Assembly: GCA_049322955.1 (NCBI GenBank)
Contig: JBMOPU010000033.1
Coordinates: 194,784 to 247,521 of the forward strand
Source of the DNA: Patescibacteria group bacterium
GTDB taxonomy: Bacteria > Patescibacteriota > Microgenomatia > UBA10105 > UBA927
DNA: 52,738 bases
Direction of reading: 5' to 3'
Positions 619 through 52,182 of this stretch are shown here, in pieces. The translations under genes were made by a program, and so were the position numbers. A model generated the notes under the pieces. It was given only the letters and a program-made list of their open reading frames with translations. It had not been told where the DNA came from and did no database searches. The stretch's first letter is position 1. The number at the start of each line of letters is the position of its first letter.

Positions 619-1016
619 AAAAAACCGATATGACAAAAAAGGTCATGAACGAAGTTGCTTCGTTTGAAGAACGAAGGTCACGATCGTGGTTTATTGCGTT
701 TTGTCTCACGATTTTCGTTCTTTTCGGCAGTATTGTCGGCGCGATTGTTCGTACGTACATGATATTGTCATACCGACGCGCACTTGATGTGCTGGAAATC
801 TTCGGCGAAGATCGGGAGATTTTTCTTGAATATTGGCAGGATGCTCTATTTATCTTTTTTTCTGAATTACCTCGGGGGACGGTATTATTTGCGCTGTGTT
901 TTTTGATACTGCTTGTCGTATATTGGATGCATGCAAAACATCAGATGCGTATTACGGCACGTCGTCTGTCAGAGCTTGCAAAATTGAAGAAAAGTCGTAA
1001 CAATACAAACGAATAA
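615..1016 (+). CDS. putative anti-sigma factor / membrane protein
   Basis: ATGA overlap with the sigma gene. Short N-terminal cytoplasmic segment followed by hydrophobic helices. The call rests on position and topology only. Confidence 0.45.
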   Translation: MKKTDMTKKVMNEVASFEERRSRSWFIAFCLTIFVLFGSIVGAIVRTYMILSYRRALDVLEIFGEDREIFLEYWQDALFIFFSELPRGTVLFALCFLILLVVYWMHAKHQMRITARRLSELAKLKKSRNNTNE

Positions 1017-9224: not shown

Positions 9225-10886
9225 TCAGTGTCGGTGAAATAATCCGTGGAGTTCTTTGAGCGTGAGGAGTATTTTCGTCGGTCTTCCATGCGGACAAGTG
9301 GCGTTGTCGGGAGTTTTCTCCAGTTGATCGGTAATCATTTTCATTTGCTCCGTTGTTAACGGATCTCCCGCCTTTACCGCGGCACGACAGGCGAGGTAGG
9401 ATAGCATTTCCTTGGATGCCGTATCAACGGATTTGGGAGAGCCCTGTTCTTCGATGTCTTCCAACATATCCCGGATAAGCTCGGGGATATCACGGTCACG
9501 AAACAAATCGGGTACATGGGTAACCAGCGTATCTTTCACGACAAATCCGAGAGCGGCAAGCGTATCGCGGTACTCGACAAGCAAAAGTTTTTCCCGGGCG
9601 GTGCATCGAAGGGCAAGCGGAGTCGGCAACGCATATCGTCTGGCGAGTTTTGTTTTTTTGCCGTATATCGATGTAAGTTTTGCAAAAAGTATCCGCTCGT
9701 GGGCGGCATGTTGGTCGATAAGTTGGATACCTTCGGGCGAAGTGACGATAATATACAGGTTGCTGTACTGCACAAAAACACGGGACACATTGATGATGCC
9801 CGTTTCTTGGAGCACCGCTTCTTTAATGCTTTTCCCGGCAACGGTTCCCGTGAGTCCCGCACCGGATCGTTTCCATGATAAGTTCTGAAACGTGAGGTTG
9901 TGATTTGCAAGGGTTTCGGTGACGGCTTGTTTTACCGTTTGGAAAATATATTGCCCGTTTGCAAAACGCACCTCTTCTTTTCGGGGGTGAACGTTTATAT
10001 CGACAAATCCCGGGGGAAGATCGGCAAATAAAACAAAAACGGGATAGGTGGCTGATTCAAGCATCGTGCCGTATGATTCCTTGACCGCCGAGGAAACAAC
10101 ACCGTCACGGACCATACGGGAGTTGATAAATAGGTATTGTTTGGCGGTAGATCGCGCATTGAGTTGCGGTTTGGCGATGAACCCTTCTATCGAAAGATAG
10201 GTATCGTTCGTTGTAATGGGAATAAGCAGAGGAAAGACATCTTCTCCCATAATCTGTTCCACGCGTTCCGCGCGTTTATGTGTCGCGGGATAATACAGCA
10301 ACGTTTTTTTTCCGTGGGTAAGCATAAACTGTACGGACGGATAGCAAAGAGCATAGTTGTTGATGATATCGACACAGAGTCTCAGTTCGGTACGAATCGA
10401 CTTCATAAACTTCTTTCTTGCCGGGATATGGGCGAATAACTGTTCCGCCGTTACGGTCGTCCCGTATGGCATGCCAACCGACGATTCGTCCATCAATTGT
10501 CCGCGTTCGACAGTGATCGAGTACCCCGTAGGGGATTTTGCCGGTCTGCTTTGGATGGTGAGTGTGCTAACGGCGGCAAGGGACGACAGTGCTTCTCCGC
10601 GGAATCCGAAACTTTGTGCCGTATGGAGGTCTTCCAATTCACGGATTTTGCTGGTCGTATGCGGTTTCCACGACTCCATAAGGTCTTCTTTGGACATGCC
10701 CTCTCCGTCATCGGTAACCCGAAGTACGGTTAGTCCGGCATCTTCGAGGGTAACGGTGATATTGGCGGCTTTCGCATCAAGCGCATTTTCAACCAGTTCC
10801 TTGACCGCATACGACGGACGTTCGATCACTTCTCCCGCGGCGATGTTTGCGACCACGAGCTCGGAAAGTTTATGAATTTTTTTCAT
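9225..10886 (-). CDS. mutL: DNA mismatch repair endonuclease MutL
   Basis: GHKL ATPase N-terminus (VVANIAAGEVIERP, ELVENALDA). C-terminal DQHAAHERILFAKL, ACRAAVKAGD and CPHGRP endonuclease motifs. ATG at 10886 chosen over the GTG at 10901. Confidence 0.95.
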   Translation of the reverse strand: MKKIHKLSELVVANIAAGEVIERPSYAVKELVENALDAKAANITVTLEDAGLTVLRVTDDGEGMSKEDLMESWKPHTTSKIRELEDLHTAQSFGFRGEALSSLAAVSTLTIQSRPAKSPTGYSITVERGQLMDESSVGMPYGTTVTAEQLFAHIPARKKFMKSIRTELRLCVDIINNYALCYPSVQFMLTHGKKTLLYYPATHKRAERVEQIMGEDVFPLLIPITTNDTYLSIEGFIAKPQLNARSTAKQYLFINSRMVRDGVVSSAVKESYGTMLESATYPVFVLFADLPPGFVDINVHPRKEEVRFANGQYIFQTVKQAVTETLANHNLTFQNLSWKRSGAGLTGTVAGKSIKEAVLQETGIINVSRVFVQYSNLYIIVTSPEGIQLIDQHAAHERILFAKLTSIYGKKTKLARRYALPTPLALRCTAREKLLLVEYRDTLAALGFVVKDTLVTHVPDLFRDRDIPELIRDMLEDIEEQGSPKSVDTASKEMLSYLACRAAVKAGDPLTTEQMKMITDQLEKTPDNATCPHGRPTKILLTLKELHGLFHRH

Positions 10887-14258: not shown

Positions 14259-14305
14259 GCGTCATCCCGCTTATCCCCCGAGTGAAAAATAACGCGCTTT
14301 TGCGG

Positions 14306-14311
14306 TATAAT
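14306..14311 (+). promoter_or_regulatory. candidate -10 box (TATAAT) for tRNA-Gln
   Basis: A perfect TATAAT ends 9 nt before tRNA position 1. No convincing -35. Confidence 0.35.
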
Positions 14312-14320
14312 ACCTACACT

Positions 14321-14391
14321 TGCGGGATCGTATAACGGTAGTACGCATCCCTCTGGAGGATGTTATCTTGGTTCGAATCCAAGTCCCGCAG
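14321..14391 (+). tRNA. tRNA-Gln (anticodon CTG)
   Basis: Manual cloverleaf: acceptor TGCGGGA/TCCCGCA (U1-A72 as in bacterial tRNA-Gln); D stem GTAT/GTAC; anticodon stem CATCC/GGATG with loop CT-CTG-GA; T arm CTTGG-TTCGAAT-CCAAG; discriminator G. No encoded CCA. Confidence 0.9.
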
Positions 14392-14393
14392 CA
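14377..14393 (+). repeat. direct repeat copy 1 (tRNA-Gln T-loop/acceptor 3' end, ATCCAAGTCCCGCAGCA)
   Basis: Identical 17-mer at 14557-14573. 13-nt core repeated at 15320-15332. Confidence 0.9.
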
Positions 14394-14431
14394 TATACAA
14401 AAATTGCCCTGAAAAGGCATTTTTTGTATAT
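14393..14431. terminator. A-tract/T-tract palindrome (bidirectional terminator-like) directly after tRNA-Gln
   Basis: ATATACAAAAATTGCC-ctgaaaa-GGCATTTTTTGTATAT. 16-bp arms with one mismatch. Confidence 0.55.
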
Positions 14432-14556
14432 ACAGAGATTTAGGATGAGAACCAACTGCCAACAGGCGTATGGTTCGGGAGTATGAAGCATTATTGAAAC
14501 AACGATTTCAATAATAGCGAAATACTCATGAAACCCCGCTTTGCGGGGTGAACATC

Positions 14557-14573
14557 ATCCAAGTCCCGCAGCA
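14557..14573 (+). repeat. direct repeat copy 2 (exact 17-nt copy of tRNA-Gln 3' end)
   Basis: ATCCAAGTCCCGCAGCA is identical to 14377-14393. Confidence 0.9.
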
Positions 14574-14596
14574 AAATTGAGATATACTACCAATAT

Positions 14597-15112
14597 ATGA
14601 ATAAAACGCACATCCATATTATTAAAACTGGCGGAACAATAGAATTTAAGGATCCAGGATACGAAAACGTTAATACACAGATGATGAAACTTGATACCTC
14701 TATAGATACGTACCTCAAAAATATGGTGAAGCCACACTTTGCCTACACCATTGAATCGGTTTGTGAAAAAGATAGTCGAGATGTTACTGACGAAGACCGC
14801 AATAAACTTATCAATGCAATCGAGCATACTTCTCACTCAAATATTGTTATTACCCACGGTACTTATACCATGGGACAAACCGCCAAATACTTAAATAAAC
14901 ATTTTATTGGCAAAGACTTAAAGAAAAAAATTATCCTGACAGGATCTATGATCCCTGTTGTTGGATTCTCTATGTCAGATGCAGCATTTAATCTTGGCTA
15001 CTGCATGGCATCATTCGATCATTTAAAACCAGGAGTCTATATAAGTATGAATGGTGGAATATTCAAGCCTAATGAGGTAGAAAAAAACTCAGAGCTACTC
15101 AGATTTGAATAA
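14597..15112 (+). CDS. asparaginase N-terminal-domain-only protein
   Basis: 171 aa. IIKTGGTIEF (catalytic Thr motif), VITHGTYTM (HGTDT-like) and ILTGSMIP. Visibly more AT-rich than its neighbours. TATACT ends 8 nt upstream of the ATG. Confidence 0.7.
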   Translation: MNKTHIHIIKTGGTIEFKDPGYENVNTQMMKLDTSIDTYLKNMVKPHFAYTIESVCEKDSRDVTDEDRNKLINAIEHTSHSNIVITHGTYTMGQTAKYLNKHFIGKDLKKKIILTGSMIPVVGFSMSDAAFNLGYCMASFDHLKPGVYISMNGGIFKPNEVEKNSELLRFE

Positions 15113-15151
15113 GCTATAACGACCGTATGGTCCGTGACCGGCACGCTCAGC

Positions 15152-15190
15152 ATATACAAAAATTGCCCTGAACGGGCATTTTTTGTATAT
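15152..15190. terminator. second copy of the A-tract/T-tract palindrome
   Basis: Same arms as 14393-14431, with the loop changed to ctgaacg. Lies 40 nt after the stop of the asparaginase-like ORF. Confidence 0.55.
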
Positions 15191-15319
15191 ACAGAGATTT
15201 AGGATGAGAACCAACTGCCAGCAGGCGTATGGTTCGGGATTGAGGAGCCGTTATCGCAACAACGATTGCGATAACAAGCGGATCAGTCATGGAGTCCCGC
15301 CCTGGCGGGACGAATATCT

Positions 15320-15332
15320 TCCAAGTCCCGCA
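15320..15332 (+). repeat. direct repeat copy 3 (13-nt core of tRNA-Gln 3' end)
   Basis: TCCAAGTCCCGCA is identical to 14378-14390. Flanks diverge (TT...ACA). Confidence 0.85.
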
Positions 15333-15348
15333 ACAAACAAGCGTGTCT

Positions 15349-15855
15349 TTATATCTTCCTGCTATCGTACGCCCAGTGGAGGAGTGCCTGTCGCTGTCGG
15401 GGTCGGCAGGATTCATCATACGGCATACAATATTTTTTGATCTGACTCACATGCCGTCGAATGGCGAGCCATCGTTTGATTTGCCGTTCGTCGTCCTCAT
15501 GGCGTCTTCCCCGATAGTAACGGCAATACCATTGGAACCACCCGCGGGGATCGTCGGGATGTATCCAGTGCTTTCGTATCCATTCGGTAAGCGATTGACT
15601 TGCCGATACGCCGAAATAATTGATTGATGGGTCTGACTTTTCCGGGGAAAGTTTGGCTTTTGCAAACCAGTTCTTGGGAAATTCAGCGATGCAGTCGGTC
15701 ATATATTTCCCCCCGAACACGCCCATCTCAAGCATTTGTTTCGGGGTAAGGTCCGGAGTAAATCGGGGATCAAAGTTTTTCCCTTCCGGTTCGGTGAGAA
15801 CATACCGATAATTCCTCTGCATTTTATCGTTAACGACAATGGTCTTAGGGTGCAT
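15349..15855 (-). CDS. conserved hypothetical protein
   Basis: Long ORF with non-repetitive composition ([11 protein letters not shown]...[28 protein letters not shown]). Internal ATG at 15855 chosen to limit overlap with the upstream gene. Family not recognised. Confidence 0.55.
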
Positions 15856-44948: not shown

Positions 44949-45022
44949 GCCCCGTTCGTCTAGCGGCCTAGGACGGTTCCTTCTCAAGGAACAAATCGCC
45001 GGTTCGAATCCGGCACGGGGTA
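44949..45022 (+). tRNA. tRNA-Glu (anticodon CTC)
   Basis: Manual cloverleaf: acceptor GCCCCGT/ACGGGGT (G1-U72 wobble); D arm GTCT-AGCGGCCTA-GGAC; anticodon stem GTTCC/GGAAC with loop TT-CTC-AA; T arm GCCGG-TTCGAAT-CCGGC; discriminator A. Confidence 0.85.
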
Positions 45023-45024
45023 CA

Positions 45025-45067
45025 TGCATAAAAAAAAGTCCCGCTTTGGCGGGATTTTTTTTATGCA
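45025..45067. terminator. long A-tract/T-tract palindrome (bidirectional terminator) directly after tRNA-Glu
   Basis: TGCATAAAAAAAAGTCCCGC-tttg-GCGGGATTTTTTTTATGCA. Confidence 0.75.
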
Positions 45068-45096
45068 CATATGTCCTGTGCTGAATTATCGAATCA

Positions 45097-45192
45097 GTTC
45101 CCGGTTCGCAATCCAGCAGTAGATAATTCGATTCGTAGAGAATTATTGTACTGCTGGTGAGTGCAGTGTGGTCACTGCAATCCGGCACGGGA
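45097..45192 (+). repeat. tRNA-Glu-associated structured module, copy G2, ending in a 13-nt copy of the tRNA-Glu 3' end
   Basis: CCGGTTCGCAATCC, then CCAGCAGTA/TACTGCTGG enclosing ATAATTC/GAATTAT, then GCAGTG-tggt-CACTGC, then AATCCGGCACGGG (identical to 45007-45019). Confidence 0.7.
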
Positions 45193-45235
45193 TGCATGTT
45201 AAAAATCCCGCACAAACGCGATAGAATATCATTGT

Positions 45236-45718
45236 ATGAATTCATATGGTCACGAATTTGAACATATGGGAACTCGTCGGGAACAACTATTGTCCCGATT
45301 ATCACATTCACTGAATAAATACGGTGTCGCCCAAAATTTGGAAGCGAAAGAACTTTGTTTCGATAACTATCGGCGCTCACTTCAATTCTTACGTAAAAAA
45401 CTCACCTCGTCCGGATTACGTATAAGAGAGTGGAATTTGTTTGGTAGCATGGCGCCTGTTCTCAGGCTTCCGTTCTTACAATCTATATTGTTACCGGTAT
45501 CGAAAGCCCGCTTGGGAATTTACCCGCTCGAATATACACTCGAGGATGCACTCGCAACCGTCACCTCCGGTCATAACGCAAGAAATTTACCTTCTGATAT
45601 TGATCTCATTTTAGATGCAGACAATGGCAATATTTCACCAAGAGATCAATCGTATATCAAATATTTCGCTCGCAAAAGTACGTTTGATGAATACGGAGTG
45701 TTTGTACAGTTTAAGTAG
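45236..45718 (+). CDS. hypothetical protein (weak, split nucleotidyltransferase-like motifs)
   Basis: 160-aa ORF, AT-rich by eye. FGS ... SDIDLILD resembles the minimal NTase G[GS]...DxD pattern, but with unusually long spacing. Confidence 0.45.
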   Translation: MNSYGHEFEHMGTRREQLLSRLSHSLNKYGVAQNLEAKELCFDNYRRSLQFLRKKLTSSGLRIREWNLFGSMAPVLRLPFLQSILLPVSKARLGIYPLEYTLEDALATVTSGHNARNLPSDIDLILDADNGNISPRDQSYIKYFARKSTFDEYGVFVQFK

Positions 45719-45804
45719 CATGCAAATTCTTCCGATTCTTCTTATTTTGTCTCAATACCATTACAAGGAAAAGATCTCTCTTCAGCCCTATAGTACGCTC
45801 TCCG

Positions 45805-45813
45805 TGTTATAAT
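45805..45813 (+). promoter_or_regulatory. extended -10 promoter element (TGtTATAAT)
   Basis: TGTTATAAT ends 14 nt upstream of the ATG at 45828. Confidence 0.5.
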
Positions 45814-45827
45814 CTGCTTTCATAGGT

Positions 45828-46304
45828 ATGGCTAAGGAACGTCCTCCAATTTACGAACATCTTGTCGCATCAGAGGAGATGGTCGAGTACGCGCGCGTGC
45901 TCCGATCCGTTGCAAAGGGGGGGAGTAATGTTGTGGAGACAGCGGACTGGACGGTACAGAGTTTCCCTCATGCTCAATATGCGGCTGATTGTGTGTTTCA
46001 CCCTGACGGCACGGAGCAGGCGGTATTTTCATTTGTCATGGCGGAACGTAGCCAACAGATAGAAATGGAAAATACGCATCGTCGTGCCCGCGGGGGATGC
46101 GGGGTAAGCGCGTTTTCCCACCTGGAACACATGGCGGCCGCCCTTTCCCGAATGGAGAATAAACCGGTACGGATGACCTACCCTCTCTATGGCCAAAAGG
46201 ACACCGAGCAGTTTCTTCTGCGTCGCGGGTACAACACAGTACTATATTTTCCGATGGGTTCTCTTGTCCCCGCACGAGCACTTGCCTGGACATATGACGA
46301 GTAG
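45828..46304 (+). CDS. hypothetical protein (possible GNAT-like fold)
   Basis: 158 aa. HRRARGGCGVSAF...FLLRRGY loosely resembles acetyl-CoA-binding motif A. Confidence 0.45.
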   Translation: MAKERPPIYEHLVASEEMVEYARVLRSVAKGGSNVVETADWTVQSFPHAQYAADCVFHPDGTEQAVFSFVMAERSQQIEMENTHRRARGGCGVSAFSHLEHMAAALSRMENKPVRMTYPLYGQKDTEQFLLRRGYNTVLYFPMGSLVPARALAWTYDE

Positions 46305-46366
46305 TTTTTCCCGATGTGTGGAGAGCAACCAACTTCCGAAGTGTGAGGCACGGAGAATTGACTCCA

Positions 46367-46741
46367 TTAGATAAGTTTGCGGGCTATGGATTCCAGAATC
46401 TTGCGATACGGCTTTTGCAACAGAGGGCGGGAATCCAGTTCATTTTTCAGTTCGTTATGGAACATCTCCCGTTCAGTATCGGTAAGAGCGATGATACCCG
46501 TTTCCTCGCCGCGTTGTTCATGTCTGTGTCCGTATCTTTTTACCACTTCATCGTGATCACGGCCGAATATTCGGAAATACACATCGTTAAGTTTTTGTGC
46601 CCGGAATTCGCCGGTTGTTGCAGGAAAGCGCCCTGCAAAAGTCGGATCGTCAGTTGCCCCCCGGAGAATAATGTTCAGAAATACGGCCGTGTGACCGAGC
46701 TCCTCCTTTGTCAGGTTAAGGTGATGTAATTGTTCAGTCAT
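46367..46741 (-). CDS. hypothetical protein
   Basis: 124-aa ORF with balanced charged/helical composition. Preferred over the overlapping plus-strand ORF 46316-46729, which is Cys/Phe-rich. Confidence 0.45.
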   Translation of the reverse strand: MTEQLHHLNLTKEELGHTAVFLNIILRGATDDPTFAGRFPATTGEFRAQKLNDVYFRIFGRDHDEVVKRYGHRHEQRGEETGIIALTDTEREMFHNELKNELDSRPLLQKPYRKILESIARKLI

Positions 46742-46898
46742 ATGATGGCCGATGGTAATTGTATCAAATTACTCGGATGATCCCGATTTCATGGTTTTAC
46801 TCACGGTCAGTTTTAGTTCGGACATCCGGAGAGGAATCTTCCCGATGGTGATAAACTTCAATATCTTCCGCTACAGAAAATAATCCGAGGTGAAAAAA

Positions 46899-47348
46899 TC
46901 AGTTATTTGGCGCGCGAAGAATCGGCGCTTCTTCAATTTTAATCGGCTTTCTGCGGGGATCTATGGTATAGGTAATTGGCTCCACGGCGACGTCCTCATA
47001 GTTACCGTACCAGGCATTTTTATCCATTTTCTCTGATGCCTCAATGTAACGGGTAAGCAACAATTGCCGCACGGATTCGGGATCAGAATGCGTTGCCTTT
47101 GCAACCTCTACCAGTAACCGTACCAATACGTCTCCACGAATGTCTCGGGGGAGTCGGGAGTAGTTGGTATAGAGTGTTACTTCGTGTCCTCGTATGGTTT
47201 TTTTGCCGCGGCGAACAAGTTCGCCTTTTTCATACGCAAGTGTATAGCGGGTGGGTTGCAGAGTCTCTTTCACGGAGCCATTATTATAGGACATTTTACT
47301 CGTTTCCACAAGCGTACTGGGTGAGAAACCATACGTTTGTAAGCTCAC
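46899..47348 (-). CDS. hypothetical protein
   Basis: 149-aa ORF starting 6 nt downstream of the pspC-like gene, suggesting co-transcription. Confidence 0.45.
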   Translation of the reverse strand: MSLQTYGFSPSTLVETSKMSYNNGSVKETLQPTRYTLAYEKGELVRRGKKTIRGHEVTLYTNYSRLPRDIRGDVLVRLLVEVAKATHSDPESVRQLLLTRYIEASEKMDKNAWYGNYEDVAVEPITYTIDPRRKPIKIEEAPILRAPNN

Positions 47349-47354
47349 AAACGA

Positions 47355-47561
47355 TTAGCTTTCGGAGGGAATGAAAATCCAGCAGAGGATGTAGGGGATG
47401 ATCCCTGGTACCCCGCCGGGGAGCAAGGCAAATACCCACAGCAAACGGACAAGGGTAACGTCCACGTTGAGGTAATTGGCTACCGCAAGGCACACGCCCG
47501 CGATCTTCCGGCCTTTTTTGGGACGCACTAATTTTTTGATTTCCGACTTTGCCATATGCAT
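47355..47561 (-). CDS. PspC domain-containing membrane protein
   Basis: KIAGVCLAVANYLNVDVTLVRLLWVFALL...IIPYILCWIFIP is the PspC domain signature. Confidence 0.8.
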   Translation of the reverse strand: MHMAKSEIKKLVRPKKGRKIAGVCLAVANYLNVDVTLVRLLWVFALLPGGVPGIIPYILCWIFIPSES

Positions 47562-47620
47562 GCAGTATATACCCGAGTCTTTCCCACTGTACAGAGGTTC
47601 CGTGTTATAGTGGAGGGGTT

Positions 47621-48136
47621 ATGGAAGAATCGTCCCAAACACCGATCTCCAAAGAACCCGTGAGCTTGCCCGCCAAGGAACGGGAGGCGACGATCACAAA
47701 TTTCCGCGAAAAACGGCTAGTCATGTGGAAAACACTCGTAGATACCATGAAGAAACACCCCAACGTTTCCCGGGTGCTTTCCGCCGCAGTTAATGCCACC
47801 GTGGGATCATATGTGAAGTTGAGTGCCGAAGCCTACACGGGAAAAACCATTGATCAGCAGAATCTCACCCCGCTAGGACGGATTGTCCATGCGTTTATTG
47901 TGGGCACGGGGCTTGCATCGTACGGACTCGTCGCCGCGGGAAGACCGGAAATTGCGGCAGTAGCATACGGCTCGTCGTGGGCGGCATACGCCATCATGTA
48001 CGGCCCTGAAATTATCGCCCCGACACTCCGCGCGGCGGCAAAGGGTATTGAGACAAAGCACCAGACTACCGCAAATATTTTGCAAGCGGTCGCCGCGGTG
48101 GTAGAGAAACCAAAGAAATTGTTTTTTAAGATATAG
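47621..48136 (+). CDS. hypothetical protein with hydrophobic C-terminal half
   Basis: GGAGG 5 nt upstream of the ATG at 47621. Ala/Gly-rich helices. Confidence 0.45.
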   Translation: MEESSQTPISKEPVSLPAKEREATITNFREKRLVMWKTLVDTMKKHPNVSRVLSAAVNATVGSYVKLSAEAYTGKTIDQQNLTPLGRIVHAFIVGTGLASYGLVAAGRPEIAAVAYGSSWAAYAIMYGPEIIAPTLRAAAKGIETKHQTTANILQAVAAVVEKPKKLFFKI

Positions 48137-48138
48137 TC

Positions 48139-48309
48139 ATGGACGAACTTAACGAAATTATCGAACACCTTGTCTCGCTTGGTGAAGATAGGGATGAATT
48201 GGAATTTTGGCGTACGGTGGCACCGTCATTCCCTCCTGACAAGCAACGGGAACTTATCAACAATCTAACCGAAGAACTTCAGTCACTCCAAAAATCGTCC
48301 GAATCCTAA
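48139..48309 (+). CDS. small hypothetical protein (56 aa, below the ORF-track cutoff)
   Basis: ATG 2 nt after the upstream stop. MDELNEIIEHLVSLGEDRDELEFWRTVAPSFPPDKQRELINNLTEELQSLQKSSES, acidic and helical. Confidence 0.35.
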   Translation: MDELNEIIEHLVSLGEDRDELEFWRTVAPSFPPDKQRELINNLTEELQSLQKSSES

Positions 48310-48356
48310 CTTTTCGCCAGTAGAGGAAGGTGACAACATTTGATATACTATAGGGT

Positions 48357-48896
48357 ATGTCAAAAGAACACGGCGATGAGCTACTCAGCAAAATGTTCCC
48401 GCGGGCACGATTTATTGATCGCATCGAATCGATCGTACTGCAGGAGGGAAACGATGCAATCCACGTGTATCCTTTGGAGTTTACATTCGACCATATTGCG
48501 CTCTATCAGGCGCATACGGAAGAGTTGGCGGGGATGGTGGAACACGCAGATACCCGTGTTGCGGTCGCCGGTCAGCAAATTCCTGTGCGTATCAACCGTA
48601 TCCGTTCGATTCACACCCTGCCTGATAATCGTGTATTTACCCGAAGCAGATATGCCGGTCCGTTTTCACTTGATACCTGTCTCGGAAAATGGGGATTACC
48701 ACGGTGGTTTAGCATAGCAAAACCGTCCCATAAACTGATTCGCGACTTGGATATCGCGATAGATAAAGCAGTCGTGCACGATGTGGGCTATTTCAATATT
48801 CCCAATGAATTTGAACTTGCTAGCAAAAATATTCATATCGAGCGGCAGGGATTTACGATTGTTGATATTGCCGCCATCCTGGAGCGGATATGGTGA
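48357..48896 (+). CDS. hypothetical protein
   Basis: 179-aa ORF. No recognisable motif. Confidence 0.45.
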   Translation: MSKEHGDELLSKMFPRARFIDRIESIVLQEGNDAIHVYPLEFTFDHIALYQAHTEELAGMVEHADTRVAVAGQQIPVRINRIRSIHTLPDNRVFTRSRYAGPFSLDTCLGKWGLPRWFSIAKPSHKLIRDLDIAIDKAVVHDVGYFNIPNEFELASKNIHIERQGFTIVDIAAILERIW

Positions 48897-48935
48897 TCTC
48901 CGCAACCCCCATGTCGGCGGTGCTATACTGACCGT

Positions 48936-49355
48936 ATGTCCTGGTTTATTTATGCCATCCTTTCCGCTGTTTTTGCCGCTCTTACGGCGATTCTTGCCAA
49001 AATAGGCATAAAAAACGTCGATTCGAATCTGGCGACCGCCGTCCGCACGGTCGTTATCCTCCTTTTTGCCTGGGGTATCGTGTTTTGGCAGGGAACGGCA
49101 AGCAAGCTCACCGCAATTTCCCAGTATTCGCTGGTGTTTCTGGTGCTCTCGGGAGTGACGACGGGTCTTTCCTGGCTGTTTTATTTCCGGGCGTTGCAGG
49201 TAGGGAAAGCGTCACAGGTTGCCCCGATTGATAAGTTGAGTCTTGTTATCACCATCATTCTTGCCGCCGTTATTCTCAAGGAGAAAGTAAGCGTTTCCAC
49301 CCTTATTGGCGGTATCCTTATGGCCGTGGGAGCCCTGTTAATTAGCCTCGGATAA
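48936..49355 (+). CDS. single-EamA-domain (DMT superfamily) small transporter
   Basis: 139 aa, 4-5 helices. ILSAVFAALTAILAKIG...YFRALQVGKASQVAPIDKLS. Confidence 0.8.
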   Translation: MSWFIYAILSAVFAALTAILAKIGIKNVDSNLATAVRTVVILLFAWGIVFWQGTASKLTAISQYSLVFLVLSGVTTGLSWLFYFRALQVGKASQVAPIDKLSLVITIILAAVILKEKVSVSTLIGGILMAVGALLISLG

Positions 49356-49379
49356 CCCCGTATGTGCCTAGTTTCTGCC

Positions 49380-49408
49380 TTGACAACCAAAAAGTAGTTT
49401 GAGACAAT
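49380..49408 (+). promoter_or_regulatory. candidate greA promoter (TTGACA-N17-GACAAT with upstream TG)
   Basis: Perfect -35. Weak -10 preceded by TGa. About 100-nt leader. Confidence 0.4.
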
Positions 49409-49456
49409 CTAACGTACGTCTGACGGCTAACGAGTCGAAAAGGCGAGAAATTATCG

Positions 49457-49492
49457 CTTCCCTGGCATTAAATACCGTGGGGAGTTTTTTTT
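49457..49492 (+). terminator. terminator-like hairpin plus T8 inside the greA leader (possible attenuator)
   Basis: CTTCCC-16 nt-GGGGAG followed by TTTTTTTT. Ends 15 nt before the greA ATG. Confidence 0.35.
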
Positions 49493-49507
49493 AAACGAGA
49501 GGATCGT

Positions 49508-49969
49508 ATGAACAACAACCATATTGTCGTTACCAAAGAAGGATTAGACACGCTCAAAGCGGAATATGACGAACTGATAAATGTCAAGCGCCCCGCGGCT
49601 GTCACCCGGCTTGCCAATGCCCGTGAACAGGGTGATTTGTCTGAAAATAGCGAATATACCGATGCCAAACAAAATTTGGCATTCATTGACGGCAGAATCG
49701 CCGAACTCGAAATCGTGCTTCACGACGTACAGGTCGTCACCACCCACACCAAAGGTCACGTGGACGTGGGATGCAAAGTCACGCTTCATATAAACGGCAA
49801 AAAAGAAGTATTCACCGTCGTCGGAGAATGGGAGGCGGATCCGTCAAGCAAGAAGATCTCCCACGAATCGCCGCTTGGCAAGGCACTCCTTGGCAAGAAG
49901 GTAGGCGAGCAGGTTGAAGTGGAAGCGCCGGCGGGCAAGATCCACTACAAGGTTTTACATATAGAGTAA
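49508..49969 (+). CDS. greA: transcription elongation factor GreA
   Basis: 153 aa. GDLSENSEYTDAKQ tip, ISHESPLGKALLGKKVGE. Confidence 0.92.
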   Translation: MNNNHIVVTKEGLDTLKAEYDELINVKRPAAVTRLANAREQGDLSENSEYTDAKQNLAFIDGRIAELEIVLHDVQVVTTHTKGHVDVGCKVTLHINGKKEVFTVVGEWEADPSSKKISHESPLGKALLGKKVGEQVEVEAPAGKIHYKVLHIE

Positions 49970-50118: not shown

Positions 50119-52182
50119 ATGGCAACAATTGACACGCTGAAAAAAATACGACTTGAGAAGCTGGAAGCCCTGAAAAACCAAGGGATAAATCCTTATCCTG
50201 CAACAGCCCGACGGGATCAACGAATCTTAGATGCCCGTCAGTCACTGAAAAAAGAAGTTGCGGTAGCGGGGAGAATCCGAGGACTCAGAGGGCATGGCAA
50301 AATCATGTTTGCCGATTTTGCCGATGAGAGCGCGAAAATACAGCTTGTTTTTAAAAGTGATTTGGTACATGAGCACGCCTTTACCTTGTTGCCGAACCTT
50401 GATATCGGTGACTTTCTTTCGGTCCAAGGAACGGTTGATACCACCCAGGCGGGAGAAATTTCGATCTTTGTTGCCGATTTTCAGATAATCTCCAAATCAT
50501 TGCGCCCGCTTCCCGATGAATGGTACGGACTTAAGGATGTCGAAGAACGGTATCGGCGGCGTCATTTGGATCTGCTTCTTAACCCCGATGTAAAAGCAAC
50601 GCTCGATAAACGATGGAAGATTGAACAGGCAATCCGCACGTTTCTTTGGAGTGAGGGCTATACGGAAGTTGAAACGCCGATTCTCCAGCCGTTATACGGG
50701 GGAACCAACGCAAAGCCCTTTACCACGCACCTTAACGCGCTTGATGTCGATTTTTATTTACGGATTGCGCCTGAGCTTTATCTCAAACGGCTTATTGTCG
50801 GCGGCTACGAGCGCATATTCGAAATCGCGAGAAATTTCCGCAATGAAGGAATGGATGCCACGCATCAGCCGGAATTTACCATGATGGAATTTTATGAAGC
50901 GTACGCGGATTATCATCGCATCATGGATCTTACCGAAGACCTCATCAAACATGCCGCACAAGCGGCGAATCAGAGCTACATGATCACGATCGACGGAAAA
51001 TCCATAGATATTTCCGGCAAATGGCGACGCATTACCGTGGATGAAGCACTCAAAGAATACGCGGGCATCGAATGGCAAAAAATTTCGGAAGAAGAAATCA
51101 AATCCCGACTCGAAAATGCCGGTGTTCAGGTTACCGGTGAGTGGAGCAGAGACAAAGCGCTTTTTGCGTTATACGACCATTTCGTGACACCGAAACTTAT
51201 CGAACCCACGTGGGTAATTGATTATCCGCGTGCCGTAAGCCCGCTTTCCAAAGAACACCGCACGAAAGAAGGCCGTGTAGAGCGGTTTGAAGGATATGTG
51301 GGGGGAAAAGAAATCTGTGACGGATGGAGTGAGATTAACAGCGGATTAGAGCAACGATCAAGGTTTGAACAAGAACAGCGCAACATGAAAGCGGGGGATG
51401 CGGAAGCACAGCCGCTCGATGAAGATTTTATCCAATCACTCGAATACGGAATGCCGCCTTTGGGGGGCATCGGTATCGGGATTGACCGATTAGTGATGCT
51501 TATTACCAATACGTGGATGATTCGGGAAGTGATTCCGTTCCCGCTCATGCGCCCCGAATCGATCTCCGGCACGGTTGCCGCGGTTTCCCTCAAGAAAGGT
51601 GAGGATAAGGATACAAGTGTATCGAAAAAAGTCGCGATGGATCTATTGCACGAGCATACGAAGAATGAAAATTTGCGGCGCCATATGTATGCCGTGGGAT
51701 ACGCCATGCGCGCACTCGCGGAAAAACTCGGCGGGGACTCAGATACCTGGGAAGTCATGGGATTGCTCCATGATGCCGACTGGGAAAAAACAAAAGATGC
51801 ACCGCATGAACATACCAAATTGACCCTTTCATGGCTTGCCGAAAAAGGGGTGACGGAAGGACGGTTGGTGCATGCCCTCATGTCCCACAACAGAAAGCAC
51901 ACGGATCTTGCCGAACTTGAGGGACTCATGGAATGGGCGCTGGAAACCGTGGATGAACTTACCGGATTTATCGTGGCCGTTACCCTTATGCGACCGGAAA
52001 AGAAACTCGAAAGCGTTGATGTCGCGGCAGTGATGAAAAAGTGGAAAACAAAGGCTTTTGCCGCGGCGGTGGATAGAGATCAAATCGCCCAGTGTGAGGA
52101 AAAATTGGGGATTCCGCTTTCGGAATTTATCACCATAACGCTTACCGCCATGCAAGCGCATCACGAAGAATTGGGGCTATAA
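50119..52182 (+). CDS. lysS: lysine--tRNA ligase (class II) fused to a C-terminal HD-domain hydrolase
   Basis: LysRS core to about residue 487 (FRNEGMD, EFTMMEFY, GIGIGIDRLVML, FPLMRPE). Then a linker and an approximately 180-aa HD domain (HMYAVGYAMRALAEKLG...GLLHDADWEK...HALMSHN). Confidence 0.93.
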   Translation: MATIDTLKKIRLEKLEALKNQGINPYPATARRDQRILDARQSLKKEVAVAGRIRGLRGHGKIMFADFADESAKIQLVFKSDLVHEHAFTLLPNLDIGDFLSVQGTVDTTQAGEISIFVADFQIISKSLRPLPDEWYGLKDVEERYRRRHLDLLLNPDVKATLDKRWKIEQAIRTFLWSEGYTEVETPILQPLYGGTNAKPFTTHLNALDVDFYLRIAPELYLKRLIVGGYERIFEIARNFRNEGMDATHQPEFTMMEFYEAYADYHRIMDLTEDLIKHAAQAANQSYMITIDGKSIDISGKWRRITVDEALKEYAGIEWQKISEEEIKSRLENAGVQVTGEWSRDKALFALYDHFVTPKLIEPTWVIDYPRAVSPLSKEHRTKEGRVERFEGYVGGKEICDGWSEINSGLEQRSRFEQEQRNMKAGDAEAQPLDEDFIQSLEYGMPPLGGIGIGIDRLVMLITNTWMIREVIPFPLMRPESISGTVAAVSLKKGEDKDTSVSKKVAMDLLHEHTKNENLRRHMYAVGYAMRALAEKLGGDSDTWEVMGLLHDADWEKTKDAPHEHTKLTLSWLAEKGVTEGRLVHALMSHNRKHTDLAELEGLMEWALETVDELTGFIVAVTLMRPEKKLESVDVAAVMKKWKTKAFAAAVDRDQIAQCEEKLGIPLSEFITITLTAMQAHHEELGL

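Follow-up and report, generated by a model that had tools for sequence, protein, structure and literature searches.

Predicted four-way junctions built from copies of tRNA 3′ ends behind tRNA-Gln and tRNA-Glu genes in Patescibacteria

Introduction

In the Patescibacteria genome studied here, the tRNA-Gln gene is followed by two further copies of its own 3′ end in direct orientation, and the question raised by this locus is what the two stretches of DNA between the copies are. The segment from the T-loop to the 3′ end of a tRNA is a common position of integrase att sites. Tycheposons are integrated serially at one tRNA and leave partial tRNAs behind (10.1101/2020.12.28.424599), and partial tRNA genes are also left by integrated elements (PMC9897764). 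The original prediction, made from the window of 52,738 nucleotides (the whole stretch of DNA that was analysed), took the two stretches for tandem mini-inserts that are either mobilised in trans or decayed. Here, we describe the structure, conservation and surroundings of these stretches, together with a second example behind tRNA-Glu.

Three copies of the tRNA-Gln 3′ end

The tRNA-Gln(CTG) gene was located at 14321-14392 on the + strand by ARAGORN and by the Rfam tRNA model (58.6 bits). It does not encode CCA, and it is preceded by a sigma-70-like promoter identified in a promoter scan (GTGAAA-18-TATAAT, 14282-14311, + strand). In the related locus L014 the tRNA is identical in 72 of 72 nt, and the -10 box of the promoter is also present with the same spacing to the tRNA; in L018 the tRNA is identical up to the end of the contig.

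The first copy of the repeat, the 17-mer ATCCAAGTCCCGCAGCA at 14377-14393, belongs to the real tRNA and comprises the end of the T-loop, the 3′ strand of the T-stem, the 3′ strand of the acceptor and the discriminator. As originally predicted, it recurs exactly at 14557-14573, and its 13-nt core TCCAAGTCCCGCA is found again at 15320-15332, where 15 of 17 positions match over the third copy (15319-15335, TTCCAAGTCCCGCAACA); all copies are on the + strand. Sequence comparison also bore out that the first insert contains no credible ORF and that the second insert ends in another copy of the same module, with 84% identity over 183 nt. A 24-mer of the module, GATTTAGGATGAGAACCAACTGCC, occurs exactly twice, with no match in 100 shuffles.

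Just before the second module lies a degenerate segment (15121-15147, + strand; CGTATGGTCCGTGA..CCGGCACGCTCAGCA) that is T-arm-like, resembles the 3′ strand of module helix P2 and ends in CAGCA immediately ahead of the hairpin H2 described below. It had been proposed to be a remnant of another tRNA 3′ end, and its part GGTCCGTGACCGGCACG does match the T-arm/acceptor segment of tRNA-Glu in 13 of 17 positions, although at 15129-15145, one position away from where it was first placed. Since 20% of random windows score as high, this match is not significant alone, and neither is the similarity of the segment to the Gln module. The tRNA-Glu relic was therefore rejected, and a 16-nt exact match between the segment and mutL was treated as chance. 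The genes upstream of the array are those for uracil-DNA glycosylase, mutS and mutL. Look-ups of several homologues of the uracil-DNA glycosylase and of a 168-aa protein (L016, L017, L021 and P0128) returned no locus with tRNA-Gln.

Predicted fold of the Gln modules

Structure prediction resolves each insert into a unit in which a hairpin resembling a terminator precedes a four-way junction of ∼135 nt. Hairpin H1 (14394-14430, + strand) has an AT-rich stem of 14 bp, GC at the top and interrupted by an internal U.U mismatch, together with a U-tract; it is terminator-like on both strands and is retained in L014 and L018 with compensated changes and with the U.U mismatch present. Its paralogue in the second unit is H2 (15153-15189, + strand). 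The junction of module 1 (14435-14567, + strand; MFE -69 kcal/mol, z = -7.9) is composed of helices P1 (14435-48 with 14555-67), P2 (14449-76), P3 (14479-14527, with a GRA/GRA internal loop and a CAACGA loop) and P4 (14533-49). The corresponding helices of module 2 (15194-15329, + strand; MFE -74 kcal/mol, z = -7.8) are P1 (15194-207 with 15317-29), P2 (15208-35), P3 (15238-88) and P4 (15294-311). Between the two modules, 8 of 46 pairs are changed on both sides, with full compensation, and none is broken.

In the predicted fold, the tRNA-like tail pairs with an upstream antisense stretch to form the closing helix of the junction, so that the second copy of the repeat provides the P1 3′ strand and the single-stranded tail of module 1 and the third copy provides those of module 2. 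By this model, only one of the three repeat copies is part of the tRNA-Gln gene itself, and the other two close a conserved folded element. The P1 duplex is imperfect and contains a bulged base that is conserved. On its 5′ side, the junction has an arm that would be approximately antisense to the T-arm and the acceptor 3′ strand of the tRNA; this arm would form P2 with a downstream sense fragment of the T-stem and T-loop and P1 with the downstream copy of the tRNA 3′ end, leaving P3 and P4 in between. The tail, being half of the closing helix, would therefore be kept. At both tRNAs discussed here, the antisense arm and the tRNA 3′ end lie in mirror symmetry on the two sides of the hairpin, and folding predicts that the arm pairs with the tRNA once the tail is absent.

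For the Gln modules, the two strands are about equal in folding stability; the + strand contains 9 G.U pairs against 2 A.C pairs. Between hairpin and junction the promoter scan found nothing convincing, and the hairpin has the appearance of an efficient terminator. A riboswitch-like alternative, in which the 3′ strand of P4 and the tail form an acceptor-like helix, was considered for the window copies and rejected, since neither L014 nor the partial copy of L018 conserves it.

A second example behind tRNA-Glu

The tRNA-Glu(CTC) gene (44949-45023, + strand) is also followed by a long terminator-like hairpin (45026-45066, + strand), with a GUCCCGC/GCGGGA top, and by a four-way junction (45067-45199, + strand; MFE -81.8 kcal/mol, z = -9.4). 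The 3′ strand of its P1 copies the 3′ end of tRNA-Glu, and the 5′ strand is the antisense of that end, weakened by transitions to G.U pairs. The + strand folds better than the - strand by 11 kcal/mol. Outside the tRNA-derived parts, the Gln and Glu modules have no sequence in common, and their tails differ (TCCAAGTCCCGCA in the Gln modules, AATCCGGCACGGG in the Glu module). On the predicted structures, the Glu module is an independent second example of the same architecture, built from the 3′ end of its own tRNA. The direct repeat at this locus (45179-45205, + strand, 81% identity to 45007-45033) contains the tRNA-Glu 3′ end and also the start of the hairpin; this extension past the tRNA end is unlike what would be expected of a plain duplication of an att core.

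Conservation and distribution of the modules

The module is present at the same locus in the window species and in two related species. Module copy 1 is 83% identical to its L014 orthologue, whereas the flanking genes are only 51-58% identical at third codon positions. Covariation was analysed in the four full copies available (two from the window, one each from L014 and L018), which come from three close species and were aligned by fitting to the model, with uncertain placement of P1/P2 in L018. In this set 97% of cells are paired and double changes occur in 20 of 46 pairs, a level that was matched in 0 of 500 shuffles; when the partners were slid by 1-3 columns, only 29-48% of cells were paired and at most 3 pairs had double changes. 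Two unpaired features of P3, its CAACGA loop and its symmetric GRA/GRA internal loop, do not vary among the four copies. These comparisons establish the fold and the selection that acts on it. Judged by their sequences, the ∼180-nt modules are paralogues, kept as structured units by purifying selection, and not recent or decaying mini-inserts.

The history of the array can be read from the relatives. L014 and L018 each have one full module and a further one of the module-2 type that is truncated at its 5′ side; two copies were therefore present before the species split, and the present state of both loci points to imprecise deletions. In L020, a full-length pseudo-tRNA-Gln lies directly behind tRNA-Gln. 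It shares a 31-nt 3′ end and has a P4-like hairpin in place of the anticodon arm, which suggests that the modules may have originated by tRNA duplication. A precise empty site, with the tRNA joined to the distal flank, was found at none of these loci. Three conspecific contigs are 100% identical in the region, an identity that is uninformative because these contigs vary only in recombination patches.

Further copies were sought by several routes. With Rfam 15, no family reached the gathering threshold apart from the two tRNAs, and the sub-threshold matches were all on the terminator hairpins; likewise, ARAGORN and the Rfam tRNA model called only 14321-14392 and 44949-45023, so the modules are not detected as tRNA-like. 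A covariance model (R1) recovered the two Gln copies of the window and no further copy there or in 11 related loci. A gapped pattern, GGAT(GA/TC)GAACCA..TGGTTCGGGA, was scanned in public viral, metagenome and genome contig collections, which apparently do not include the window's own genome, and gave 0 matches in viral contigs and 2 each in metagenome and genome contigs, all four by chance within unrelated sequence, 3 of them clearly coding. The additional copies and the integrase-bearing parent element that had been looked for on the original prediction were not found, the former in these collections and the latter in the window ORFs or the same scans. Viral contigs were also scanned for window-type and L010-type 3′ ends of tRNA-Gln as possible attP sites, with no match. 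A literature search found no description of such modules; the element is undescribed and occurs in a small group of Patescibacteria behind tRNA-Gln or, in another version, behind tRNA-Glu.

Genes behind the modules

The AT-rich ORF of the second insert (14597-15112, + strand), predicted as such, has a GC content of 35.5% (48% for the window) and a GC3 of 34% (51-57% in neighbouring genes), and the segment is thus compositionally foreign relative to its flanks. It encodes a short-chain, single-domain L-asparaginase of 171 aa (PF00710, Asparaginase N-terminal, 3e-24) with PDB matches to asparaginases of 185 aa, among them 8UOO (1e-21). Among its 1321 homologues, all source names given are Patescibacteria, and the gene is AT-rich in every genome examined. 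The promoter scan found nothing promoter-like ahead of the start codon as far back as the module tail.

The asparaginase gene is absent from the relatives that carry modules. In L010, a homologue with 70% protein identity adjoins tRNA-Gln, with the tRNA inverted, in a locus that is syntenic with the helicase and EngB genes of the window (78.7% and 79.6% amino-acid identity). The gene has therefore been linked to this locus for longer than any single insertion, and the idea that the asparaginase is element cargo only was rejected. L010 and L011 share 1085 bp at 100% identity and are unrelated from the exact 3′ end of tRNA-Gln onward, where L011 has a Dsr1/SIR2-like defence gene. From these sequence comparisons, the tRNA-Gln 3′ end is an active recombination point in the genus.

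Gene content behind the modules varies between species. AT-rich genes begin 8-41 nt past a tail in three cases, namely the asparaginase, an HEPN gene in L018 (36.7% GC) and ORF 45236-45718 behind the Glu module (41% GC), for which Pfam and PDB sequence searches gave no match. No integrase, recombinase or transposase domain was found by Pfam in 47 window ORFs, six of which had no Pfam hit at all; the scan covered all but a few smaller ORFs. In this respect, too, the original prediction agrees with the scan.

Discussion

With moderate confidence, we interpret the modules as a tRNA-derived, lineage-specific and selected structured element in two paralogous copies, probably an RNA. The element would have originated as a tandem duplicate of tRNA-Gln, with the state seen in L020 resembling an intermediate, and the two copies would have been in place before the window species and L014 separated. 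As to transcription, processing and role, the modules would most likely function as a + strand RNA, with transcription starting at the tRNA promoter and reading through a leaky hairpin; the product may be a stable trailer RNA that doubles as a leader for whichever gene comes next. The tail may retain the attB-like core of the tRNA and could serve as a secondary landing site for foreign DNA, which would explain the AT-rich genes 8-41 nt past the tails.

Against an RNA speak the terminator-like hairpin with no convincing promoter behind it, the similar folding of the Gln modules on both strands, and the recombination that does occur at these sequences, as seen from the foreign genes beside the tails and the L010/L011 polymorphism. 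Compensated stems are also found in folded single-stranded DNA elements such as REPINs and integron attC sites, and the modules could instead be folded single-strand recombination sites of the attC type or non-autonomous mini-elements, a reading that we regard as possible but doubtful. The antisense arm and the tail would then form a duplex that mimics the tRNA gene at its 3′ end, and a recombinase encoded elsewhere would join this mimic to the tRNA or to another tail, stacking promoterless cassettes behind the tRNA promoter. Such a role fits with the att-like core of its own tRNA (Gln or Glu) at the end of every module, the bulged base of the imperfect P1, the position of the AT-rich genes, the variable gene content and the sequence switch between L010 and L011. 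However, none of the 47 ORFs scanned has a recombinase domain, the three public contig collections yielded no further copy, and one site-specific enzyme is hard to reconcile with Gln and Glu modules that share only tRNA-derived sequence. Moreover, the presence of the module at one locus in three species, with a divergence close to the rate of the flanking genes, fits vertical descent, and the losses in L014 and L018 are imprecise deletions within a module and not excisions from core to core.

A direct comparison with integron cassette arrays shows both likenesses and differences. The modules may resemble attC sites in a structure that is conserved over sequence and in an imperfect duplex with a bulged base; in both, each unit stands at the 3′ end of a gene or of a stretch free of ORFs and the next gene follows a few bases on, and the asparaginase ORF is like a cassette in lacking anything promoter-like ahead of it and in differing from the host in composition. 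In contrast to integrons, no integrase gene (intI) with attI and Pc adjoins the array, no tyrosine recombinase was found among the window ORFs scanned, the R''/R' boxes (RYYYAAC ... GTTRRRY) are absent, and the tails carry in place of a GTTRRRY core the 3′ end of the adjacent tRNA, which differs between Gln and Glu. P1 has a conserved bulge and P3/P4 covary, and the module as a whole is a four-way junction and not a single hairpin; DNA and RNA folding are not separated by these data. Unlike cassette arrays, the locus shows no cassette turnover among the three conspecific strains.

The reading from which we started, two tandem integrative elements that are trans-mobilised or decayed (similar to cis-mobilizable elements or tycheposon remnants) with the tRNA 3′ end copies as attL/attR, appears improbable in the light of the conservation data. 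It retains the direct repeats that span the T-loop to the tRNA 3′ end downstream of an intact gene, the compositionally foreign ORF between tandem copies, the absence of an integrase nearby, the published precedents for serial integration and partial tRNA genes, and the hotspot at the tRNA-Gln 3′ end, which is a live recombination point. In cis-mobilizable elements, however, the interior is expected to evolve neutrally once the mobility genes are lost, whereas here it is held at 83% identity against 51-58%, with compensated stems, so a recent or decaying origin of the modules did not stand. The arrangement is also older than the species split, the repeated unit is a whole module of ∼185 nt that contains an antisense copy of the repeat and not the core alone, the tRNA-Glu repeat exceeds the tRNA, and neither a precise empty site nor a parent element was seen in the loci of the relatives or in the pattern scans.

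A broader version of the recombination scheme is, in our estimate, a long shot of low probability. Here a so far undescribed tRNA-anchored system of Patescibacteria would use a folded strand, either DNA or guide-like RNA, whose antisense arm and tRNA 3′ end copy together mimic the end of the tRNA gene and form a programmable recombination site, and a recombinase whose gene lies elsewhere would capture promoterless genes (asparaginase, HEPN and others) at sites downstream of tRNA promoters. If true, this would be an integron-like cassette platform with its site specificity set by the neighbouring tRNA. Finally, a functionless by-product, in which template switching at a long terminator palindrome extends it and duplicates flanking tRNA sequence while hairpin-templated DNA repair keeps the stems complementary, would fit the mirror symmetry at both tRNAs, the predicted pairing of the antisense arm with the tRNA and the equal folding of the Gln modules on both strands, but is very unlikely because it leaves unexplained the invariant unpaired loops and GRA/GRA internal loop, the excess of G.U over A.C pairs and the 83% cross-species identity where silent sites are near saturation.

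Understood as a selected, tRNA-derived element, the modules are a candidate new family of structured RNAs in Patescibacteria, with no matching family in Rfam 15. Partial tRNA repeats are routinely read as integration footprints, and since here such a repeat would be a structural strand, calls of an "att scar" can hide functional elements. The occurrence of one design at two different tRNAs suggests a general mechanism, which could lie in tRNA transcription and processing or in gene capture at tRNA loci. Accessory gene gain beside tRNAs in small-genome bacteria without resident integrases thereby becomes testable.

Among known elements, REPIN/MITE-like elements are likewise short, non-coding and hairpin-forming with compensated stem changes. 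However, they occur as dispersed near-identical copies, of which there were none in the 52.7-kb window or in the public collections scanned, whereas every module seen lies beside a tRNA and corresponds to that tRNA, and the scan of 47 window ORFs gave no RAYT or other transposase. By analogy with RNAs that come from tRNA precursors or have tRNA-like ends (the leuZ 3′ external transcribed spacer (3′ ETS) in E. coli and the mascRNA/MALAT1 3′ end), the position directly 3′ of the tRNA in the same orientation and the tRNA-like end suggest a link to tRNA transcription or processing. Position and strand agree with a 3′ ETS, whereas the module is much larger and highly structured, contains the tRNA 3′ half in both sense and antisense orientation and is separated from the tRNA by a terminator-like hairpin. 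The modules also share features with pseudo-tRNAs and tandem tRNA duplicates: the degenerate full-length tRNA-Gln copy of L020 occupies the same place, and P4 with the tail resembles its altered anticodon arm and 3′ end, although the modules are not cloverleaves and have gained an antisense arm, P2 and P3.

Folded units behind tRNA-Gln and tRNA-Glu

The 3′ end of tRNA-Gln(CTG) (14321–14392) is present in three copies, as originally predicted: the 17-mer ATCCAAGTCCCGCAGCA occurs in exact copies at 14377–14393 and 14557–14573, and its 13-nt core recurs at 15320–15332. The stretches between these repeats had been regarded as mini-inserts, but both are folded units, a point that the original prediction missed. 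Each unit begins immediately 3′ of a ...CAGCA end with a long hairpin (14394–14430 in unit 1 and 15153–15189 in unit 2) that is AT-rich apart from a GC top, includes a U-tract, and is terminator-like on both strands. The hairpin is followed by a four-way junction, referred to here as the module (module 1, 14435–14567; module 2, 15194–15329). The two units share one fold (z = −7.9 and −7.8). In P1, GAGAUUU(A)GGAUGA is paired with UCAUCCAAGUCCC, so the closing helix has the tRNA-like repeat as its 3′ strand. P2 combines GAACCA/UGGUUC with a small inner hairpin. The long P3 arm contains a symmetric GRA/GRA internal loop as well as a CAACGA loop, and a GC-rich hairpin forms P4. The junction's 5′ arm, GAGAUUUAGGAUGAGAACCAA, is antisense, with imperfect matching, to the tRNA-Gln T-arm and to the beginning of the acceptor 3′ strand. 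Between modules 1 and 2, both bases are substituted in 8 of 46 pairs with no pair lost, and the 24-nt module seed GATTTAGGATGAGAACCAACTGCC has two exact occurrences versus none in shuffles.

A module of the same design follows tRNA-Glu (44949–45023), with a long hairpin at 45026–45066 and a four-way junction at 45067–45199 (z = −9.4). Here, P1 is formed between a duplicate of the tRNA-Glu 3′ end (AATCCGGCACGGG) as 3′ strand and, as 5′ strand, the antisense of that sequence with transitions that preserve G·U pairing; GGUUCG is present again in P2. The Glu and Gln modules have no common sequence outside the tRNA-derived parts, and neither matched any Rfam family. The direct repeat at tRNA-Glu (27 nt, 81%) does not stop at the tRNA end but also covers the first bases of the hairpin, which fits whole-unit duplication better than att-core duplication.

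At both loci, folding the tRNA together with the hairpin and antisense arm alone gives a predicted structure in which this arm invades the T-arm and acceptor strand of the tRNA. Once the full module is included, a return to the intact cloverleaf and junction is predicted at the Glu locus. The swapped and unswapped folds at the Gln locus are expected to be near in energy, because the tail (the 3′ end of the module) copies the tRNA 3′ end.

Conservation and origin of the module

The arrangement in two contigs of the same species (L001 and L002) is identical to that in the window; they differ from it only by recombination patches and thus add no information. In the more distant L014, whose uracil-DNA glycosylase (Ung) is 82% identical to that of the window, Ung is followed by an identical tRNA-Gln, a hairpin, and one full module, with a module-2-type 3′ half abutting ...CCCGCAG and then the same convergent 168-aa gene; the asparaginase gene discussed below is absent from this locus. 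L018 (79% identical Ung) contains tRNA-Gln, a hairpin, a more diverged full module, and then a fragment comprising P4 and the tail. A HEPN-domain gene (L018 798–1240, minus strand) starts 8 nt past that tail and has a GC content of 37%, versus 51% for the Ung gene.

A covariance model constructed from the window's two copies matched exactly four copies (two in the window, one each in L014 and L018), with no others in the window or at 11 other loci. The four-copy alignment was fitted to the model, and L018 is placed with uncertainty at P1/P2; in this alignment, 97% of cells are paired, with double changes at 20 of 46 pairs. This level of covariation was reached by 0 of 500 shuffles, and versions with slid partners were 29–48% paired. 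Module 1 and the L014 module are 83% identical, whereas identity at third codon positions between the same loci is 51–58% in Ung and the 168-aa gene, indicating that the module is under purifying selection. The two-copy state is older than these species. Viral, metagenome, and genome collections yielded no copies outside this small clade, and literature searches retrieved no description of such modules.

A further relative, L020, whose 168-aa protein is 80% identical, contains a 69-nt pseudo-tRNA-Gln directly 3′ of tRNA-Gln (620–765, minus strand). The 31-nt 3′ ends of the two are identical, and GUCCCGC-UUA-GCGGGA, a GC hairpin with a 3-nt loop, replaces the anticodon arm; its stem is the P4 stem of module 2. 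This looks like an intermediate state, suggesting that the tail and P4 came from a tandem tRNA duplicate.

The best-supported reading, toward which we lean, is that the module is a structured element derived from the tRNA and maintained by selection, most likely as an RNA from the tRNA strand, and that its tail would also offer an attB-like landing site. On the + strand, G·U versus A·C pairs number 9 versus 2, and the + strand fold of the tRNA-Glu module is 11 kcal/mol better than that of the − strand. We regard a folded recombination site resembling attC as a doubtful alternative; Pfam scans of 47 window ORFs detected no recombinase or transposase domains, in line with the original observation that the 52 kb contain no integrase.

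Recombination at tRNA-Gln ends

Recombination at tRNA-Gln ends does occur. Two contigs of a sister species, L010 and L011, are 100% identical over a 1085-bp stretch spanning the tRNA-Gln 3′ end and the asparaginase gene, and are unrelated just past ...CCCAGC (at L010 1–300 and L011 1–510); in L011, a Dsr1/SIR2-like defence gene lies at the junction with the tRNA-Gln 3′ end. In this sister species, tRNA-Gln looks like a live integration hotspot. L010 and L014 are at about equal distance from the window (protein identity between L010 and the window is 78.7% for the helicase and 79.6% for EngB). In L010, tRNA-Gln is inverted with respect to the asparaginase gene, and the locus has no module.

The ORF at 14597–15112 encodes a single-domain asparaginase (PF00710), the closest solved relatives of which are 185-aa asparaginases. 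Its predicted AT-richness was borne out (GC 35.5%; GC3 34% versus 51–57% in neighboring genes). The gene has 35–37% GC in every genome examined (window, L005, L006, L010, and L011), including those with 48% GC flanks, and adjoins tRNA-Gln in two different arrangements (window and L010). The ∼170-aa single-domain form is widespread, with 1321 homologues from Patescibacteria where source names are given. The 574-bp segment 14574–15147 is bounded by a tail (...GCAGCA) on one side and, on the other, by a degenerate ...TCAGCA preceding the unit 2 hairpin, which fits an insertion between two once-adjacent units. Partial tRNAs are well-documented integration footprints (PMC9897764; 10.1101/2020.12.28.424599). 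The original model of decayed or trans-mobilised mini-elements would accommodate these features, and we consider it improbable for modules that covary and are under selection. Least probable is a palindrome by-product without function.

The proposed tRNA-Glu-like remnant (15129–15145) matches at 13 of 17 positions as counted, but the similarity is not significant. Upstream of the unit 2 hairpin, 15122–15137 also matches mutL coding sequence (10103–10118, minus strand) exactly over 16 nt (CCGTATGGTCCGTGAC), probably by chance. Three independent assemblies of this species break within the tRNA-Gln/module region or at its edge (the start of L001 and the ends of L015 and L019, at window positions of about 14338, 14445, and 15338), which could result from the near-identical module repeats or strain heterogeneity.

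The 168-aa protein (15349–15855, minus strand) belongs to no Pfam family and is highly conserved, with >8000 homologues at ≥70% identity and source names that include Patescibacteria, Anaerolineae, and an alphaproteobacterial family. Eight small ORFs form a run (45236–49969) downstream of the tRNA-Glu module, and the five that were scanned gave no significant Pfam match. The first (45236–45718, 41% GC) starts 41 nt past the module tail; Pfam and PDB sequence searches returned nothing for it, and by eye its GS...SDIDLIL stretch is nucleotidyltransferase-like. Further downstream, 50119–52182 encodes a class II aminoacyl-tRNA synthetase (tRNA-synt_2 and OB anticodon-binding domains) with a C-terminal HD domain.
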